Virus record (IMG/VR): IMGVR_UViG_2526164649_000022
Source of the DNA: a virus
Lineage: Duplodnaviria; Heunggongvirae; Uroviricota; Caudoviricetes
Direction: 5' to 3' (one strand)
Length of the DNA stretch: 34,807 nucleotides
The notes under the pieces were generated by a model. It saw only the letters and a list, made by a program, of their open reading frames with translations, was not told the origin of the DNA and made no database searches. Positions 1 through 34,536 of this stretch are shown here, piece after piece (positions within the stretch are counted from its first letter, which is position 1; every line of letters begins with the position of its first letter). A program made the position numbers and the translations under genes.

Positions 1-738
1 TCACTTCGGGTAAGGCTGAATCCTGAATAGCTTAGTATTTAGTCGCTTTCTTGCGCGCTTGTTCAGGAACCTGATGTAACGATATTGATTAAATTTGTGT
101 ACCACGGCCCGCTCCTTATTCGCTCGTAAATATTCGCCGCGCTTCCCTCCACGATTAATCGCATTCATCGTTATCTCGTGATACCACTCACCGTCCAGTT
201 CGTAGAATATGCTTTCATGGCTGCCAATAAAATCAAAATTTGACGCCTGATACACAACACCTGCACACCCGCAACGTTCGTCTGCAAAGGACTGAACCCA
301 CTCCACTGACGGATACAGTAACCTGATGGTTTTCAGCGCGTAGCTGATGGCCCGTGATTCAGAGTTGCGGGGCATGTCGTCGTGTAGCCACATGCGGTTC
401 AGTTCCATATAGCCCCGGTTATCCGTTTCAAGCACAACGCGACGCCCTGAGTTGGGGTTAAGGGCATATCCCCACTGAAGAACACCAACCAGATCACGTC
501 CACTGAATACGCCCAGATGCAACCAGGAGTTATTCACAAAACGGCGGGAATAATGCTTTGTCTGAATGATTGTGCGGGCCAGCCAGCAGGATATGGTTTC
601 AACGCGCAGCTCCCTTGAACCATAGCCGACAATCCGGCCTTCATACTCAATAACGCAGGGTTTTGTCAGAATGCGTGATTTCTTCTCTTTTCCCACAATA
701 CAGCTCCGTGGGATGCTCCCGGGCACTCGATATGACAA
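1..738 (-). CDS. mom: Mom-like DNA modification (anti-restriction) protein; stop codon at window positions 1-3; start uncertain because the reading frame overlaps com
   Basis: 245-aa ORF immediately downstream of, and overlapping, a recognisable com zinc-finger gene, as in the Mu com-mom operon at the phage right end. Confidence 0.7.
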
Positions 739-957: not shown

Positions 958-1059
958 TAATCGCCTGGTAGACTGGCCCCCTGAATCTCCAGACAACCAG
1001 TATCACTTATTTAAGTGATAGTCTTAATACTAGTTTTTAGACTAGTCATTGGAGAACAG

Positions 1060-1425
1060 ATGATTGATGTCTTAGGGCCGGAGAAACGCAGACGGCGTAC
1101 CACACAGGAAAAGATCGCAATTGTTCAGCAGAGCTTTGAACCGGGGATGACGGTCTCCCTCGTTGCCCGGCAACATGGTGTAGCAGCCAGCCAGTTATTT
1201 CTCTGGCGTAAGCAATACCAGGAAGGAAGTCTTACTGCTGTGGCCGCCGGAGAACAGGTTGTTCCTGCCTCTGAACTTGCTGCCGCCATGAAGCAGATTA
1301 AAGAACTCCAGCGCCTGCTCGGCAAGAAAACGATGGAAAATGAACTCCTCAAAGAAGCCGTTGAATATGGACGGGCAAAAAAGTGGATAGCGCACGCGCC
1401 CTTATTGCCCGGGGATGGGGAGTAA
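1060..1425 (+). CDS. insC: IS2 transposase OrfA (InsC)
   Basis: [40 protein letters not shown] matches recalled InsC; the track ORF start at 1015 is an upstream extension. Confidence 0.9.
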
Positions 1426-2288
1426 GCTTAGTCAGCCGTTGTCTCCGGGTGTCGCGTGCGCAGTTGCACGTCATTCTCAGACGAACCGATGACTGGATGG
1501 ATGGCCGCCGCAGTCGTCACACTGATGATACGGATGTGCTTCTCCGTATACACCATGTTATCGGAGAGCTGCCCACGTATGGTTATCGTCGGGTATGGGC
1601 GCTGCTTCGCAGACAGGCAGAACTTGATGGTATGCCTGCGATCAATGCCAAACGTGTTTACCGGATCATGCGCCAGAATGCGCTGTTGCTTGAGCGAAAA
1701 CCTGCTGTACCGCCATCGAAACGGGCACATACAGGCAGAGTAGCCGTGAAAGAAAGCAATCAGCGATGGTGCTCTGACGGGTTCGAGTTCTGCTGTGATA
1801 ACGGAGAGAGACTGCGTGTCACGTTCGCGCTGGACTGCTGTGATCGTGAGGCACTGCACTGGGCGGTGACTACCGGCGGCTTCAACAGTGAAACAGTACA
1901 GGACGTCATGCTGGGAGCGGTGGAACGCCGCTTCGGCAACGATCTTCCGTCGTCTCCAGTGGAGTGGCTGACGGATAATGGTTCATGCTACCGGGCTAAT
2001 GAAACACGCCAGTTCGCCCGGATGTTGGGACTTGAACCGAAGAACACGGCGGTGCGGAGTCCGGAGAGTAACGGAATAGCAGAGAGCTTCGTGAAAACGA
2101 TAAAGCGTGACTACATCAGTATCATGCCCAAACCAGACGGGTTAACGGCAGCAAAGAACCTTGCAGAGGCGTTCGAGCATTATAACGAATGGCATCCGCA
2201 TAGTGCGCTGGGTTATCGCTCGCCACGGGAATATCTGCGGCAGCGGGCTTGTAATGGGTTAAGTGATAACAGATGTCTGGAAATATAG
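1383..2288 (+). CDS. insD: IS2 transposase OrfB (InsD), DDE integrase domain
   Basis: 301-aa ORF overlapping insC in the arrangement typical of IS3-family OrfA/OrfB. Confidence 0.9.
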
Positions 2289-2919
2289 GGGCAAATCCAC
2301 CTGGTCTGAACGCTCTCACCTCGTCCAGTGTGGGCAACAGAGAAAGTTGTTCTTTCATCTCCCGCTGACAGCGATAAATCTCATCGTTGCGCTCAACAAT
2401 GGCCTGTATCATCGCTGTGGCCAGTTCCTCAAGTTCCTGCGTCGTCAGCTGCACCTGCTGATTATCCGCATCACTCCACGTCATATTTGTTTGTGCCGCG
2501 ACAGATTTTGCCAGCATGACTACCGGGGACAGGCGGCCCAGTGAGTCGGGGCCAGCATTCCAGATACGACCGTTCCATTCAAACGTGAACGGCTTCGCCT
2601 CCTGTTCTGTGCGCCATGCTTCAATTTCCTGACGTCTGGCCTCTCTGGCCGCTTCCAGCATTTCTGGTGTCACAGTGAATGGGGCTATCTCACCCCATTT
2701 GCCACTTTGCAGTTCCTGCCAGATTCGCTGACCCGTCGGTGCGACATCATCAGCGGTGGCTGTGTAGGGGACTGCCTGGTCCCTGTCGTCAAAAAAAACG
2801 TCACAGTCTACTGCGCCACTTTCGGTATAACGGGGATTAATGATTTTTTTAATTTCCACGGTGCATTCCTCACGATGTGCGAATAAAAAGCCCGGGCATT
2901 GCGCCAGAGACATGAGCAT
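2122..2919 (-). CDS. Phage tail-module protein (putative second tail-fibre assembly/chaperone-like); phage-derived part is 2300-2919; C-terminus replaced by read-through into IS2
   Basis: Position directly downstream of a tail-fibre gene; removing IS2 and one duplication copy restores ...RAFRPGD followed by TAA. A GTG start at 2859 with a GAGGA Shine-Dalgarno is plausible instead of the ATG at 2919. Confidence 0.5.
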
Positions 2920-27945: not shown

Positions 27946-28395
27946 TTAAGGACGTCGTGGCGGACGACGAACGGGGTGAGGCAGGTTCGGGGAGTGGTAA
28001 AACAAATCCGGCTGGTATTTATTACACTCCAGACGCCGCATCCGCTTGATGGCCTTGTAGACGGTTTTATACGTCACCCCGTAACGCTGAACCAGTTCAG
28101 GAATATTATGGCCGTTAAAATCACGCCAGATACGCATATCCCGGACAAGATTCTCCAGAATATTCCCCCTCGGAACATAAACCTGCATCCCGCCGATATA
28201 GCGACAAATCGCCACAACCAGCTCAAGGGAATGGGCAGGGTCTGCGCCAATCCGGGCCAGCTCTTTACGCAGCAGTGCGTTCAGTTCAGAAAGTAACGCC
28301 GGATAAGCCGTGTTTTCCTGGTAATCGTTAAGGTATTCCAGAACGCTGTCGTCCCGGAAGTCTTCGAATAAATCCTGCTCTTTCATCTGTTTCAT
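27946..28395 (-). CDS. mor: Mor/C-family transcriptional activator of middle/late genes
   Basis: 149-aa ORF directly downstream of GemA-like gene with C-terminal helix-turn-helix region (ELVQRYGVTYKTVYKAIKRMRR), as in Mu Mor/C. Confidence 0.7.
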   Translation of the reverse strand: MKQMKEQDLFEDFRDDSVLEYLNDYQENTAYPALLSELNALLRKELARIGADPAHSLELVVAICRYIGGMQVYVPRGNILENLVRDMRIWRDFNGHNIPELVQRYGVTYKTVYKAIKRMRRLECNKYQPDLFYHSPNLPHPVRRPPRRP

Positions 28396-28943
28396 ACAGC
28401 AATTCTCCCGCTGTTTCGTGCGCGGGCATACGCACTGGTCAGTGCATCATAGCCGCGCAGCTCCTGCCCGGTTTCGCTCACAGGTAAAGGCACACCATGT
28501 CGGGCAAAGGCTTCACGGATGCAGCGCATATGCCACTGTTTGAGCGTTTCGAGCACAACCTGCAACGATTCCCCGTGACACCAGGCCAGCGTGGAAACAC
28601 CCTGACCGCCATTACGTCTGGCTGTCAGGCGTTCAACGTATTTGTCCAGCGCAGCGTCGCTGATATCGGAGACGAAACCATCAAGGAACATCTGCTGCCA
28701 GATTTTATAAATCTTCTCGCGCGGTGTGACATGCCCCTTAAAGCGACGGCGGGGATGTTTTTTCTGCTTCTTAAAACCGCGCTCTTTCATGGCATCGAGC
28801 ACACGTTCCAGTTGTGCAACGGAAAGCTCGCGGCAACTGGTTTTGCCCGTGCACTGCACCAGAAAGGTGCGGTAAGTGTCATCGTCGAGTTGCAGGTCAC
28901 GACGGGCAACATGAATTAATTTAATCAGGGATGTGCAGCTCAT
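28392..28943 (-). CDS. gemA: GemA-like protein (Mu gp16-like)
   Basis: 183-aa ORF immediately upstream of the Mor-family gene, matching Mu gemA-mor order. Confidence 0.55.
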   Translation of the reverse strand: MSCTSLIKLIHVARRDLQLDDDTYRTFLVQCTGKTSCRELSVAQLERVLDAMKERGFKKQKKHPRRRFKGHVTPREKIYKIWQQMFLDGFVSDISDAALDKYVERLTARRNGGQGVSTLAWCHGESLQVVLETLKQWHMRCIREAFARHGVPLPVSETGQELRGYDALTSAYARARNSGRIAV

Positions 28944-29081
28944 TATGTCCCCCCGGATTTAAAATTAATTCGGTGTTGAATAGCTCTTTACTCATTCGAT
29001 GTAGCACATCGAGGGCGGCAACTGCCGCTACTTTATCCTGGCTGGCAATGATTTTTCGTAATTCCTCAATAATCCAGGCTG
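28921..29081 (-). pseudogene. 3' fragment of an early-region gene truncated by IS1
   Basis: The reading frame ending at 28921 continues upstream only into IS1 sequence; the phage-derived part is about 53 codons. Confidence 0.35.
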
Positions 29082-29136
29082 GGTAATGCTGCCAACTTAC
29101 TGATTTAGTGTATGATGGTGATTTTAAGGTGCTTGC

Positions 29137-29412
29137 GTGGCTTCCATTTCCATCAGATGTCCTTCCTGCTCCGCTACTGAAGGCGTGGTGCGTAACGGCA
29201 AAAGCACTGCCGGACATCAGCGCTATCTCTGCTCTCATTGCCGTAAAACATGGCAACTACAGTTCACTTACACCGCCTCTCAGCCCGGTACGCACCAGAA
29301 AATCATTGATATGGCCATGAATGGCGTCGGATGTCGCGCCAGTGCACGCATTATGGGCGTTGGCCTCAACACGGTTTTACGTCACTTAAAAAACTCAGGC
29401 CGCAGTCGGTAA
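29137..29412 (+). CDS. insA: IS1 InsA
   Basis: 91-aa [42 protein letters not shown]... matches recalled InsA. Confidence 0.9.
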
Positions 29413-29834
29413 CCTCGCGCATACAACCGGGCAGTGATGTGATTGTCTGCGCTGAAATGGACGAACATTGGGGCTACGTCGGTGCTAAATCACGTCAGCG
29501 CTGGCTGTTTTACGCGTATGACAGGATACGGAGGACGGTTGTGGCGCACGTCTTCGGTGAACGCACTCTGGCCACACTGGAGCGTCTTCTGAGCCTGCTG
29601 TCGGCCTTTGAGGTCGTGGTATGGATGACGGATGGCTGGCCGCTGTATGAATCACGCCTGAAGGGAAAGCTGCACGTTATCAGCAAGCGTTACACTCAGC
29701 GCATTGAGCGACATAATCTGAATCTGAGACAACATCTGGCAAGGCTGGGACGGAAGTCACTGTCGTTCTCAAAATCGGTGGAGCTGCATGACAAGGTCAT
29801 CGGGCATTATCTGAACATAAAACACTATCAGTAA
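29331..29834 (+). CDS. insB: IS1 InsB reading frame (expressed as InsAB' by -1 frameshift)
   Basis: ORF overlapping the insA 3' end and ending ...[15 protein letters not shown], as in IS1. Confidence 0.85.
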
Positions 29835-29880
29835 GTTGGAGTCATTACCCGGATTTTGACGTTCATTGTCAGCGTTCCTT

Positions 29881-30159
29881 TCAGTGGCATGTTTTTTCAA
29901 CAGCCATTTCAGTGACACGGCCACCGGTGATGACACTATCGTTTTTCAAAATCTCGATAGCTTCATGGGCTGACTCATTAATTATTTTCTGGCTTTTATT
30001 AAGCACCAGTAACGCCACCATGCCAGCAAGTGTACCCTCATCACCGTCCAGTTCCGCACTACCGTCCACCGCAATGCTGGTGCGCAAATTCAGTCCTTTA
30101 ATTCCAGATACTGTATTTTTAATTTCAATAATTACTTTTGCCATTTTGTTATTCCTCAC
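29881..30159 (-). CDS. Hypothetical early-region protein
   Basis: 92-aa ORF between IS1 and the B gene; no recognisable domain. Confidence 0.4.
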   Translation of the reverse strand: MRNNKMAKVIIEIKNTVSGIKGLNLRTSIAVDGSAELDGDEGTLAGMVALLVLNKSQKIINESAHEAIEILKNDSVITGGRVTEMAVEKTCH

Positions 30160-30176
30160 AAATAAATAAGCCGTTA

Positions 30177-30404
30177 TTAACGCCAGATAATCTGGCAGCC
30201 ATTAAGGCGGGCCGTCCATACTGAACGGGCAACCCCTGATTTATGCTCCATAATCCTGACAGCGTTTCTGACCAGCTCCGGTGGTGGGCAGGTGATTTCA
30301 AGTACCGGACGCGCCACGCCGAGATATGATTCATTTACGTGACTCCCGTGCGCCTGTAACCAGTTCTGCGCATCCGTTGCCATTTTTATATTTCGTGACA
30401 TCAT
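30177..30404 (-). CDS. Hypothetical small early protein at the position of Mu kil
   Basis: 75-aa ORF immediately downstream of B; positional inference only. Confidence 0.35.
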
Positions 30405-30419
30405 GGTTTATGTCCTTTA

Positions 30420-31370
30420 CTACCAGTTCAGTAACCTGGGGTTGCTGTAAGCCTCCTTAAAAGCCGCTTTAATGTGACTTTTATTCAGGGATGTGCCTGC
30501 ACCTTTTGCCGCCAGCCACGCATGATTCAGTGTGTGAGTTAATACACGCAATTCCCCGGGCTTTTCGGCTACCCTCATCAGCAGGTCCAGCTCATCTTCC
30601 TGTGTTACTCCCCATGCTTTGGCTACAGCCATCACATCGGTCTTTTTTACTTTGCGCAGTTGTTTTGTCATGGCAAAACGGCTGAACAGACGGGCCAGTT
30701 CATCAGTCCCACGACGGGTGGCATCCGCCATCTGTTTCGGGTTGCCAATTAAAACCATCCCCACGCCAGTGGCATCCTGAATGGCGCGTAATTGCTCCAG
30801 ACCATCCACACTTAAGTGATCAGCTTCATCAATAATCAGAAGGGGGTTAACACGGCCACTGGTTTCTTTACCACCACCCAGTTTTCTGCGAATGGCGCGG
30901 GTTATATTCCCCTTATTTCTTCCCGGATTATTAATTTCCAGCGCATATGCTATTTCAAGGAGGCATTCCGTTACGCTCGAATGTGCCGGAGCAAGAGTCA
31001 CCATCCAGGCATTAGCTGTCCTGCGACAATATTCCCGGGCAGCAAAGGTTTTTCCGACACCCGGTACGCCAACAACGACACTGATAATCCCGAGTGAGCG
31101 CACTGTTTTAAACAGCTCATGCAAATCACAAAATGTCTGGGTCTTCACAACACCAGGGGTACCTGACAAGTTCTGTCCCTTCTGCCAGACCTGATACCAT
31201 TTCTGTAATTTGTCATGCATACCTTCGACATTACCGTTGTACTCTCCTTTACGCAGAGCCGAGAGTGTTGCCGGAGACATTCCGGCTTCATCAGCAATAT
31301 CTTCCTGAGACTTGTCGCCCTCGTTAATCAAAGCGTTAATAGTGTTGAAAACATCATCAATATCAGTCAT
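30420..31370 (-). CDS. B: Mu B-like AAA+ ATPase (transposition target-DNA activator)
   Basis: 316-aa ORF with Walker A GVPGVGKT, immediately downstream of the transposase gene. Confidence 0.85.
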   Translation of the reverse strand: MTDIDDVFNTINALINEGDKSQEDIADEAGMSPATLSALRKGEYNGNVEGMHDKLQKWYQVWQKGQNLSGTPGVVKTQTFCDLHELFKTVRSLGIISVVVGVPGVGKTFAAREYCRRTANAWMVTLAPAHSSVTECLLEIAYALEINNPGRNKGNITRAIRRKLGGGKETSGRVNPLLIIDEADHLSVDGLEQLRAIQDATGVGMVLIGNPKQMADATRRGTDELARLFSRFAMTKQLRKVKKTDVMAVAKAWGVTQEDELDLLMRVAEKPGELRVLTHTLNHAWLAAKGAGTSLNKSHIKAAFKEAYSNPRLLNW

Positions 31371-31445: not shown

Positions 31446-33273
31446 TCAGGCCAGCGGATCATCTTCTTCCTGCATGGCAAAAAGTTTTTGCATCCCCAGC
31501 CGGAAATCGCGTTCAAATTCTTCGTCATGCTCTTCTTCATATTCCGGTTGCTGAACTGCCACCACATTACCAACCGGGCGATAAACATTACTCAGCCAGG
31601 GTTCAGCCTGTTTGTGTTCCAGAATCTGAATACCTTCATCTTCAGCATCACGAATTTTTTCCTCAGCGCGTTTGCGCATTCCTTTAATACGCTGCTGTTG
31701 TTTGTGATATTCAGCACTGACAGCAAAGGCTGCGCGTTTATTGCCGTTCCATATCGCCTCACAGATAAAGCTGCCGTCCTTGCGACGTACCGTAATTCGC
31801 TCGGCGTCATGAATGTCATAACTGATAAGCACTTTGCGACCGTGTTCGTCACGCAACTCCGGCGCGTAGTAAATATTGTTCAGCCACTGAATTTCGCAGC
31901 GTCTTACCGGTCGTTCCACCATTGGGCGGAACATGTCGCGCAGCTCAAGATCACTCAGCCACTCAATTTCGGTGTCTTCTTCTGCCAGGCGTTTTTTCTG
32001 AACTCTGTCGGGCTGTAATGCCGTCCGTTCGGTTTCATCGGCAGCTCAGAATGCGGGCGGTTGTTGTACCATTCCACGCCTTCACGAATAGCCTCAATAA
32101 GCTCCGCCCACGATGGCAGCTCGCGCATTGCCGCTTTCTGGCGGTCGTTCAGAGGCTTGTCCTGTTGCAGGGCGTTAAACGCTGAACGCAGATCACGGTT
32201 AAGTACACGCAACGATTCCCGGTCAGCACCCTTGCCAAAATAGGTGCGATACCTCCTGGCTATACGCATCGGCAGTGTCCGGTTCAGGCGTTCAATAATG
32301 CCGCGTCCCTGTGGATTACCGGCAATACCGGTAGGGTGTTTAATCCCCAGGCGTGGCAGAATACCCACGACCTCTTTGTCCAGCATGTCAGCCGTTTCAC
32401 CGGAACCGTTATCCGAGTAATACAGGAACGGTTTTCCGTGGTTGCGAATGCCGTGCTGTATCGCACCGGCAACGGCGAACACGTTTTCGGCAAGGTCAAG
32501 ACTCCAGCCAACAACAAACCGTGTTCCACCATCGATCACAAACGTGACTTCCGGTGAGAATGGACGCCCGTGGATCGGATGCGCACATTTCAGCTTCATA
32601 CCGTGACCGTCACCAATCCAGACATAATTCACCGGCATAGCTGTCCAGTCGCGGCGGGTGAATCCTTCAAGCTGACGGTATTCACTGCCGGTAACGCGCC
32701 CTTTTTGTTTCACCACTTCCGGCAGTTTTTTCATGGCATACCGGACAACATCATAGGAAGGCATCACCTCCAGCATGTACGGTTCGTCCGCATGGCGACG
32801 CTGCCATTCTGCGACAAAATCCTCGTAGGCTTCTGACATGGGTCTGCCGTTCACCTGGCGATACTGCGCCAGAAATTCAGGCAGCCAGCTGATTTCTTCC
32901 GGTTTTATTTCGTCGCGTTTTCCCGGTGCCAGTAACAGCAGCCGTTCGGCGGCGTTCTGCGACTGGTTGTATTTCAGAACCCACTGGTAAAGTGGATCGC
33001 GGCTGATAGTACGATTAGCGCCACGTTTTGCATTGGCGTTAACTGCGGCCTGTTGCAGGCGCTCCGGCAGCTCACCTTTACGGGCTTTTTCAACAAGAAA
33101 GTTAATGGCTTTCAGTCGCCCGAGGTTACCGGCGCTTTCCAGCTTCAGCACTTCCACCACCAGCGCAGCTCTTGCTTCAGATACCCAGCGCTGGTTTTCG
33201 GTCAGCGCATTCAGGCGTTCTTCCATCAGTTGTGGAGAACCGCGATATGCTTCGATTGCCTGGACAGCGTCAG
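31446..33273 (-). pseudogene. A: Mu A-like DDE transposase, central and C-terminal parts, frameshifted in a T6 run (31992-31997) and severed from its N-terminus by IS600
   Basis: ORFs 31955-33322 and 31446-31934 align to consecutive MuA regions in different frames (...VWIGDGHG... catalytic core; ...NNIYY...DGSFICEA domain III). Confidence 0.8.
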
Positions 33274-33337
33274 TGAGGTAGCCTGAGTTTAACGGACACT
33301 CCTTCCTGAAATAGAATGGCATCAGAAGGAGCTAATA

Positions 33338-33640
33338 ATGAGCAGAAAAACCCAACGTTACTCTAAAGAGTTCAAAGCCGAAGCTGTCAGAACGGTTCTT
33401 GAAAATCAACTTTCGATCAGTGAAGGCGCTTCCCGATTATTCCTTCCTGAAGGCACTTTAGGACAATGGGTTACCGCCGCCAGAAAAGGGCTCGGTACTC
33501 CTGGTTCCCGCACGGTGGCTGAACTGGAATCTGAAATTCTGCAACTGCGTAAGGCGTTAAATGAAGCTCGCCTTGAGCGAGATATATTAAAAAAAGCAAC
33601 AGCGTATTTTGCACAGGAGTCGCTGAAAAATACGCGTTAA
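33338..33640 (+). CDS. IS600 OrfA (copy 2; one Ser-to-Phe difference from copy 1)
   Basis: 100-aa ORF identical to copy 1 except SRLSLPEG to SRLFLPEG. Confidence 0.85.
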   Translation: MSRKTQRYSKEFKAEAVRTVLENQLSISEGASRLFLPEGTLGQWVTAARKGLGTPGSRTVAELESEILQLRKALNEARLERDILKKATAYFAQESLKNTR

Positions 33641-33675
33641 TCGAACAATGGCGACAACAATTTCCCATTGAAGCG

Positions 33676-34493
33676 ATGTGTCAGGTATTTGGTGTATCCA
33701 GGAGCGGTTATTACAACTGGGTACAGCATGAACCCTCAGACAGAAAACAAAGTGATGAGCGGCTAAAACTGGAGATTAAGGTGGCACATATCCGCACTCG
33801 CGAAACATATGGAACCCGGCGGCTCCAGACGGAGCTGGCAGAGAATGGCATCATCGTTGGTCGTGACCGACTGGCACGTCTTCGTAAGGAGCTAAGGCTA
33901 CGCTGTAAGCAGAAACGCAAGTTCAGAGCGACTACGAACCCGAACCACAATCTGCCAGTTGCGCCAAATCTGCTGAACCAGACGTTCGCTCCTACAGCAC
34001 CAAATCAGGTCTGGGTGGCGGACCTGACGTATGTTGCCACACAGGAGGGATGGTTGTACCTCGCTGGCATCAAAGATGTTTATACGTGCGAAATTGTCGG
34101 CTACGCCATGGGAGAGCGCATGACAAAAGAGCTGACAGGTAAAGCCCTGTTTATGGCGCTCAGGAGCCAGCGCCACCTGCCGGGCTAATCCACCACTCTG
34201 ATCGAGGTTCACAGTACTGCGCATACGATTACCGGGTCATACAGGAGCAGTCTGGTCTGAAAACATCAATGTCGCGTAAAGGTAACTGTTACGACAACGC
34301 TCCGATGGAAAGCTTCTGGGGAACGCTGAAAAATGAGAGCCTGAGCCACTATCGTTTTAATAACCGGGATGAAGCCATCTCAGTAATACGGGAATACATT
34401 GAGATTTTCTACAATCGTCAGCGTCGTCACTCTCGTCTGGGGAATATCTCCCCGGCAGCCTTCAGGGAAAAATATCATCAGATGGCTGCTTAA
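33676..34493 (+). pseudogene. IS600 OrfB (copy 2), frameshifted by a 1-bp deletion
   Basis: Copy 1 reads AGCGCCCACCTGCC, copy 2 AGCGCCACCTGCC (about 34171-34176); ORF splits into 33676-34188 and 34269-34493. Confidence 0.8.
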
Positions 34494-34536
34494 AAAAAGA
34501 ACAAATGGTAGTATCCGCTATTGCCAGTACACCTCA

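Follow-up and report, generated by a model that had tools for sequence, protein, structure and literature searches.

Between the gene for the B-type transposition ATPase and the remains of an insertion sequence (IS)-truncated gene, a Mu-like prophage carries two small open reading frames (ORFs) that are considered here. The prophage, lying on the minus strand, is nearly entire and makes up the window, by which is meant the whole 34,807-nucleotide (nt) stretch of IMG/VR virus record IMGVR_UViG_2526164649_000022. As judged by sequence, the two are orthologues of phage Mu genes whose phenotypes are already published: kil (Mu gp5) and E6, which has also been described as gnarl2. Very probably they belong, as kil and E6/gnarl2, to the early (Pe) operon of a transposable, Mu-like prophage, and have survived passively within it. 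What was established here is the identity of the genes, their boundaries, their synteny and purifying selection on them, together with the state of the prophage. The phenotypes are taken from the literature, and what is said of targets and of expression state is inferred.

The kil and E6 genes

Both ORFs are present on the minus strand (30177..30404 and 29881..30159), as described in an initial annotation made without database searches. The first was correctly given there as 75 amino acids (aa; 74 from the second ATG) and as occupying the kil position. It is the first gene after B and it is kil itself. B is its upstream neighbor in the same operon, the B stop at 30420 being followed 16 nt later by the kil ATG at 30404, and an AAGGA ribosome-binding site lies 8 nt 5′ of the kil start. 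The 92 aa given for the second ORF did not stand, as this is the longest possible frame and its GTG at 30159 falls within the ribosome-binding region. The true start, the ATG at 30144, has GAGGA 8 nt 5′ and gives a protein of 87 aa. Mu is annotated with this same start, and M[A/E]KVIIEIK opens every one of the aligned homologues (22/22). E6 thus lies between the kil stop at 30177 and the ATG of the E7 homologue at 29866. Overlapping ORFs, whether on the plus strand or in another frame, are shadows of the two genes.

Kil is identical to Mu Kil at 69 of its 75 residues (92%), and E6 to Mu gp7, formerly E6 (NP_050611.1), at 84 of 87 (97%). The DNA is 89.5% identical to the Mu record in the kil stretch and 97.7% in the E6 stretch, and a Megablast comparison of the whole kil-E6 segment with phage genomes matched Mu and SfMu at 93–94% nt identity. 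In PHROGs, Kil matches phrog_2743 (‘Kil’) over residues 1–75 of 75 (E 7e-42), and the 92-aa version of E6 matches phrog_10252, a family of unknown function, over residues 6–92 (E 3.6e-55). Pfam family PF26843 (Kil_protein) is on record for the identical Kil sequence in other genomes, as is PF26833 (Phage_Mu_gp6) for E5, which Mu places between kil and E6.

The initial annotation had recognized neither protein and had regarded both as orphan, uncharacterized early genes and fresh candidates for host takeover or anti-defense. An older local Pfam-A copy indeed gives no match for Kil or E6 (in the case of Kil because the library is old, the newer family now existing), NCBIfam gives none for either, and the PADLOC anti-phage defense models match neither protein at E ≤ 1. 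Profile searches against PDB sequences returned nothing for E6 and a chance match only (E 1.4) for Kil. RefSeq labels both genes ‘hypothetical protein’, and this label together with the empty NCBIfam, PADLOC and PDB results explains why they looked like orphans. However, homology to characterized Mu early proteins, which the annotation had itself named as evidence that would speak against its proposal, is found at 92–97% identity, the Mu counterparts have published phenotypes, and PF26843 exists, so that the orphan interpretation is refuted. The general functional class proposed was right; as new candidates the two genes fail. The outcome carries little weight as discovery, but is a useful correction of annotation, from ‘hypothetical’ in RefSeq and older Pfam to kil and E6/gnarl2.

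Conservation and selection

Mu, SfMu, the lineage of the window and a more distant lineage (~72% identical in E6) were compared. Across them synonymous changes exceed non-synonymous changes in both genes, the ratio of non-synonymous to synonymous substitution rates (dN/dS) being 0.05–0.12 for kil and 0.10–0.29 for E6. Mu, SfMu and 8 further loci share the order B-kil-(E5)-E6-E7-E8-gam, which every intact locus fetched has retained. The dN/dS values and the kept gene order show these to be real genes and not chance ORFs. Both proteins have 0 differences from those of the intact relative L003, and the identical E6 protein is present in the intact relatives L003, L006 and L008.

The kil-E6 segment is matched in 91 of 5426 complete E. 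coli genomes, with 22 covering at least 80% of it, and the identical Kil protein was found in 1193 blocks of an assembly collection. E6 forms a very narrow family. An exhaustive hidden Markov model search of 1.84 billion cluster representatives returned 1 full-length cluster plus fragments, and the matches bearing organism names are all from Escherichia, Shigella or Salmonella. [The same search gave E 3e-11 to 4e-4 for three long repeat proteins, which were rejected as artefacts and are not E6 homologues. On re-scoring, each single stretch gave at most 15 bits (whole-library E at least 2e3), the original score being a sum over tandem repeats of an ‘ILxNDgvitGG’-like motif.]

Kil

In the GenBank record of Mu, gp5 is named Kil/cim. 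Expression of Mu kil turns E. coli spherical (Waggoner et al. 1989, as cited in Haeusser et al. 2014, PMC3961180), and deletion of the semi-essential region leaves the host viable again after MuBam infection (PMC3325207). In a live phage, kil and E6 would be transcribed with ner, A and B directly upon induction or infection. The phenotypes of the window alleles are carried over from the closely similar Mu proteins. On that footing Kil, a 75-aa basic protein, would kill the host without phage replication and convert rods to spheres as known for Mu, and the spherical form suggests that it blocks cell elongation and not septation.

The full label of phrog_2743 is ‘Kil protein for bacterial septation inhibition’, and early Mu functions are cited in one paper as inhibitors of segregation or a cause of filamentation; both would suit an inhibitor of septation acting on FtsZ, like Kil of phage lambda or KilR of prophage Rac. 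These two resemble the window protein in being small early prophage proteins that are lethal on expression and in their gene name, lambda Kil also in its PHROG label. However, they prevent FtsZ rings from assembling and the cells become filaments, in contrast to the spheres made by Mu kil, and the kil genes of Mu, lambda and Rac are mutually unrelated (Haeusser et al. 2014, PMC3961180). Sequence comparison agrees: lambda Kil (47 aa) and the window Kil give no BLASTP alignment at E ≤ 100, and lambda Kil matches phrog_3924, phrog_2461 and phrog_2055 but not phrog_2743. Since the unrelated Mu-type and lambda-type families bear the same label, that of phrog_2743 derives from the gene name and cannot be taken as evidence of mechanism. 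Septation inhibition by the 75-aa protein is unlikely, and the PHROG label, which also clashes with the published spherical-cell phenotype, is not to be trusted for Mu-type Kil. Blocked elongation is the preferred interpretation.

The structure model of Kil is confident. Foldseek comparison of the model with viral predicted structures retrieved uncharacterized proteins only (best E 2e-3). Residues G20-S21 are invariant in the alignment. The catalytic hG[GS]...[DE]h[DE]h motif of Pol-beta-type nucleotidyltransferases was looked for, and there is no [DE]x[DE] in the 75 residues; if such a fold is real, Kil would not be an active nucleotidyltransferase. As a prediction, the model could guide a search for the Kil target.

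E6/Gnarl2

Mu gp7 (NP_050611.1) was tested as orf63, named gnarl2, by Silas et al. (bioRxiv 10.1101/2023.04.06.535777; Nat Commun 2025, PMC12373910), the sequence of orf63 having been taken here from their Supplementary File 3. Its expression in strains ECOR1 and ECOR22 shifted the O-antigen bands downward and improved infection by T5 10^5–10^6-fold, and it was among the genes lethal in some hosts (PMC12373910). Kil was absent from the gene set of that screen. Silas et al. proposed that small proteins such as Gnarl2 act on a host factor for O-antigen or lipopolysaccharide (LPS) biosynthesis or modification, and that the benefit to the phage is receptor masking, superinfection exclusion of kin phages, or avoidance of re-adsorption to debris (PMC12373910). 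An acidic protein of 87 aa, E6/Gnarl2 is too small for an enzyme; on expression it would lower the O-antigen ladder and so remove the O-antigen barrier to other phages, e.g. T5. [Foldseek comparison of an E6 model with the PDB gave nothing below E 3.5, from which no conclusion is drawn.]

The prophage around the pair

The region is the Mu semi-essential early region, where the initial annotation had placed it. A gene with the Phage-MuB_C domain adjoins the pair, and GemA and Mor are further downstream (Table 1). From left to right the gene order of the window is tail-fiber, tape-measure, sheath, head, portal, terminase, Mor, GemA, E6, kil and B, with a Mom-like gene (1..738) at the left edge and the start codon of A forming the right edge. 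No RNA family was found in the window with Rfam. The initial annotation overlooked the defective state of the prophage and the loss, beside an IS1, of most of the early accessory region including gam. The damage was read against L003, which is >99.8% identical over A to E6.

Table 1. Positions of the gene pair, its neighbors and the lesions of the prophage
Feature	Position	Strand	Size, extent or basis
kil, orthologue of phage Mu gp5 (Kil/cim)	30177..30404	minus	75 aa
E6/Mup07, gnarl2 orthologue	29881..30144	minus	87 aa
B-type transposition ATPase	30420..31370	minus	316 aa; Pfam Phage-MuB_C 2.1e-22, AAA_22 2e-17
E7 (Mu gp8) homologue, first 17 nt	29850..29866	minus	ATGAACGTCAAAATCCG; junction read against L003
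IS1 (InsA/InsB)	29082..29849	plus	768 bp; 99.6% identical to annotated IS1F
3′ remnant of phrog_1988 / SfMu gp14-like gene	28921..29081	minus	phrog_1988 E 6.8e-18, C-terminal 48 residues only; aligned to L003 from 9672 onward
GemA	28392..28943	minus	Pfam match
Mor	27946..28395	minus	Pfam match
1-bp deletion (A7 to A6), frameshift in transposase A	31991..31997	minus	gapped alignment to L003
IS600 in 5′ part of transposase gene A	33274..34536	plus	99.8% identical to annotated IS600
IS2, between Mom-like gene and tail-fiber genes	967..2299		99.7% identical to annotated IS2

The terminal inverted repeats of IS1 are at 29081-29104 and 29827-29850. It lacks a target-site duplication and its two flanks differ. 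One end of it abuts the E7 homologue at codon 6, and the other meets the middle of a 111-aa gene that lies just upstream of gemA. Missing at this point are the 3.1 kb that correspond to L003 6556..9671, comprising the rest of E7, E8, gam, four further ORFs and the 5′ part of the 111-aa gene. The junction looks like an IS1-mediated adjacent deletion.

IS600 is flanked by a 3-bp duplication, CAG (junctions read against L003), and sits between the early promoter region, which is outside the window, and kil/E6. [This copy is 1263 bp, its matches being 1264 bp, and its own orfB is split.] Owing to the frameshift, A is split between two ORFs, 31955..33322 and 31446..31934. This prophage is incapable of transposition, and upstream of B-kil-E6 its early operon is broken. 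At the other end, IS2 lies at about the position that the gin invertase and G segment have in Mu, and it may have disrupted the tail-fiber switch.

Another, different remnant of the same prophage is seen in two other genomes, L004 and L007 (~6270). There an IS1 follows E6 codon 3, the junction reading ATGGCAAAAG and then GGTAATGACTCC, and host genes come next. This IS1 represents a second, independent event within ~300 bp of that of the window; kil was kept and E6 lost.

Expression and fate of the pair

In the window the pair would be a passive survivor of a dead prophage, intact and identical to the genes of live relatives. That Kil and E6 are identical to those of the intact relative shows the inactivation to be recent. 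Here kil and E6 are probably expressed little or not at all, considering the lesions upstream.

The strongest form of this is that transcripts are terminated, or are subject to polarity, before B-kil-E6, so that the genes are inert and their ORFs are intact merely through the recent death of the prophage. This has close to an even chance of being correct, though somewhat less. IS600, in opposite orientation, and the frameshift are both upstream in the same operon, terminator-like hairpins are present on the minus strand inside IS600, and no promoter above chance was detected upstream of kil. The zero differences from L003 in both proteins leave no time for decay, and in the independent remnants, with E6 cut by IS1 at codon 3, E6 is dispensable. 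However, Mu lysogens have a second promoter, Pe*, inside A, with low-level B expression in all cells (PMC3820752), and by analogy a counterpart of Pe* might be present downstream of IS600. Outward promoters carried by IS elements are a further possible source of transcripts.

Alternatively, the kil-gnarl2 pair could have been domesticated, with low-level expression remodeling the host O-antigen or envelope and with retention by selection on the host lineage. Both ORFs are intact amid destroyed flanking genes, the identical Kil occurs in the 1193 assembly blocks already mentioned, and Gnarl2 alters O-antigen on expression (PMC12373910). But there has been no divergence since inactivation from which selection could be measured, other remnants lack E6, and the toxicity of Kil makes constitutive expression unlikely. 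Domestication is very unlikely, and passive survival of known Mu-type genes is the preferred interpretation.

Several points weigh against that interpretation. A promoter scan found no more sites than in shuffled sequence, and the early promoter is outside the window. For E6, residue S70 is in a column with G in at least 90% of homologues, and the intact relatives share S70. The AlphaFold2 model of E6 (23 aligned sequences) is poor, with a predicted local distance difference test score (pLDDT) of 58, and gives no structural support for the mechanism. In the published work, affinity purification–mass spectrometry did not reveal a clear gnarl2 partner, and the LPS gel had n = 1 with the shifts called subtle (PMC12373910).

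Comparison with known systems

Gnarl1 and Gnarl3 (Silas et al. 2025), like E6/Gnarl2, are small (40–90 aa) phage accessory proteins that lower O-antigen bands and make wild E. coli sensitive to T5; GalU is bound, and apparently inhibited, by Gnarl3. They differ in being from lytic phages, and the shared name is by phenotype only, no sequence relationship having been reported. The closest mechanistic precedent for the proposed action of Gnarl2 would be Iap of Pseudomonas phage D3, which, as cited in PMC12373910, is a small non-enzyme protein that inhibits the host O-antigen polymerase. Both host and phage are different and, according to the same citation, D3 seroconversion also needs two phage enzymes.

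Mu itself is the nearest system. Its Kil (AAF01084.1) has the same length and a comparable ribosome-binding site, and its gene is likewise the first after B, on the same strand and in the same operon. The proteins differ by six substitutions (window to Mu: S3A, H19R, V34I, C39Y, P42V and R46K). Cys39 (about 30288..30290) is invariant in 17 aligned homologues including that of the window, and Mu and SfMu carry Tyr there; they also have Val for Pro42. The pattern at these two positions shows the Kil of laboratory Mu to be an atypical allele. E6 has the same length and start as Mu E6/Gnarl2, with the E7 start codon next as in Mu, and differs in having L18 for R, S70 for G and G74 for S.

The lineage of the window also differs from Mu in that E6 comes directly after kil (gap 30145..30176), without the zinc-finger gene E5 (Mu gp6, PF26833). 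Mu, SfMu and the L009-L012 lineage have E5 between kil and E6; L003, L005, L006 and L008 do not have it. Because intact relatives also lack it, its absence is a trait of the lineage and not decay, and a recent E5 deletion in the window was ruled out.

Beyond the pair the resemblance to Mu falls away. The B protein of the window has only 41% aa identity to MuB, A has ~25% to Mu A, and for the late genes the best match to a deposited phage, 72.7% to a Klebsiella phage, is not close. Over 29850..31370 the mosaic boundary relative to Mu (L001) is sharp, with Kil at 92% and E6 at 97% beside B at 41%. To judge from these identities, the accessory module is a clear case of exchange independent of the transposition genes. 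It is of modest value as an example of such exchange, a near-Mu kil-E6 module being set beside transposition genes that are just 25–41% identical to those of Mu.
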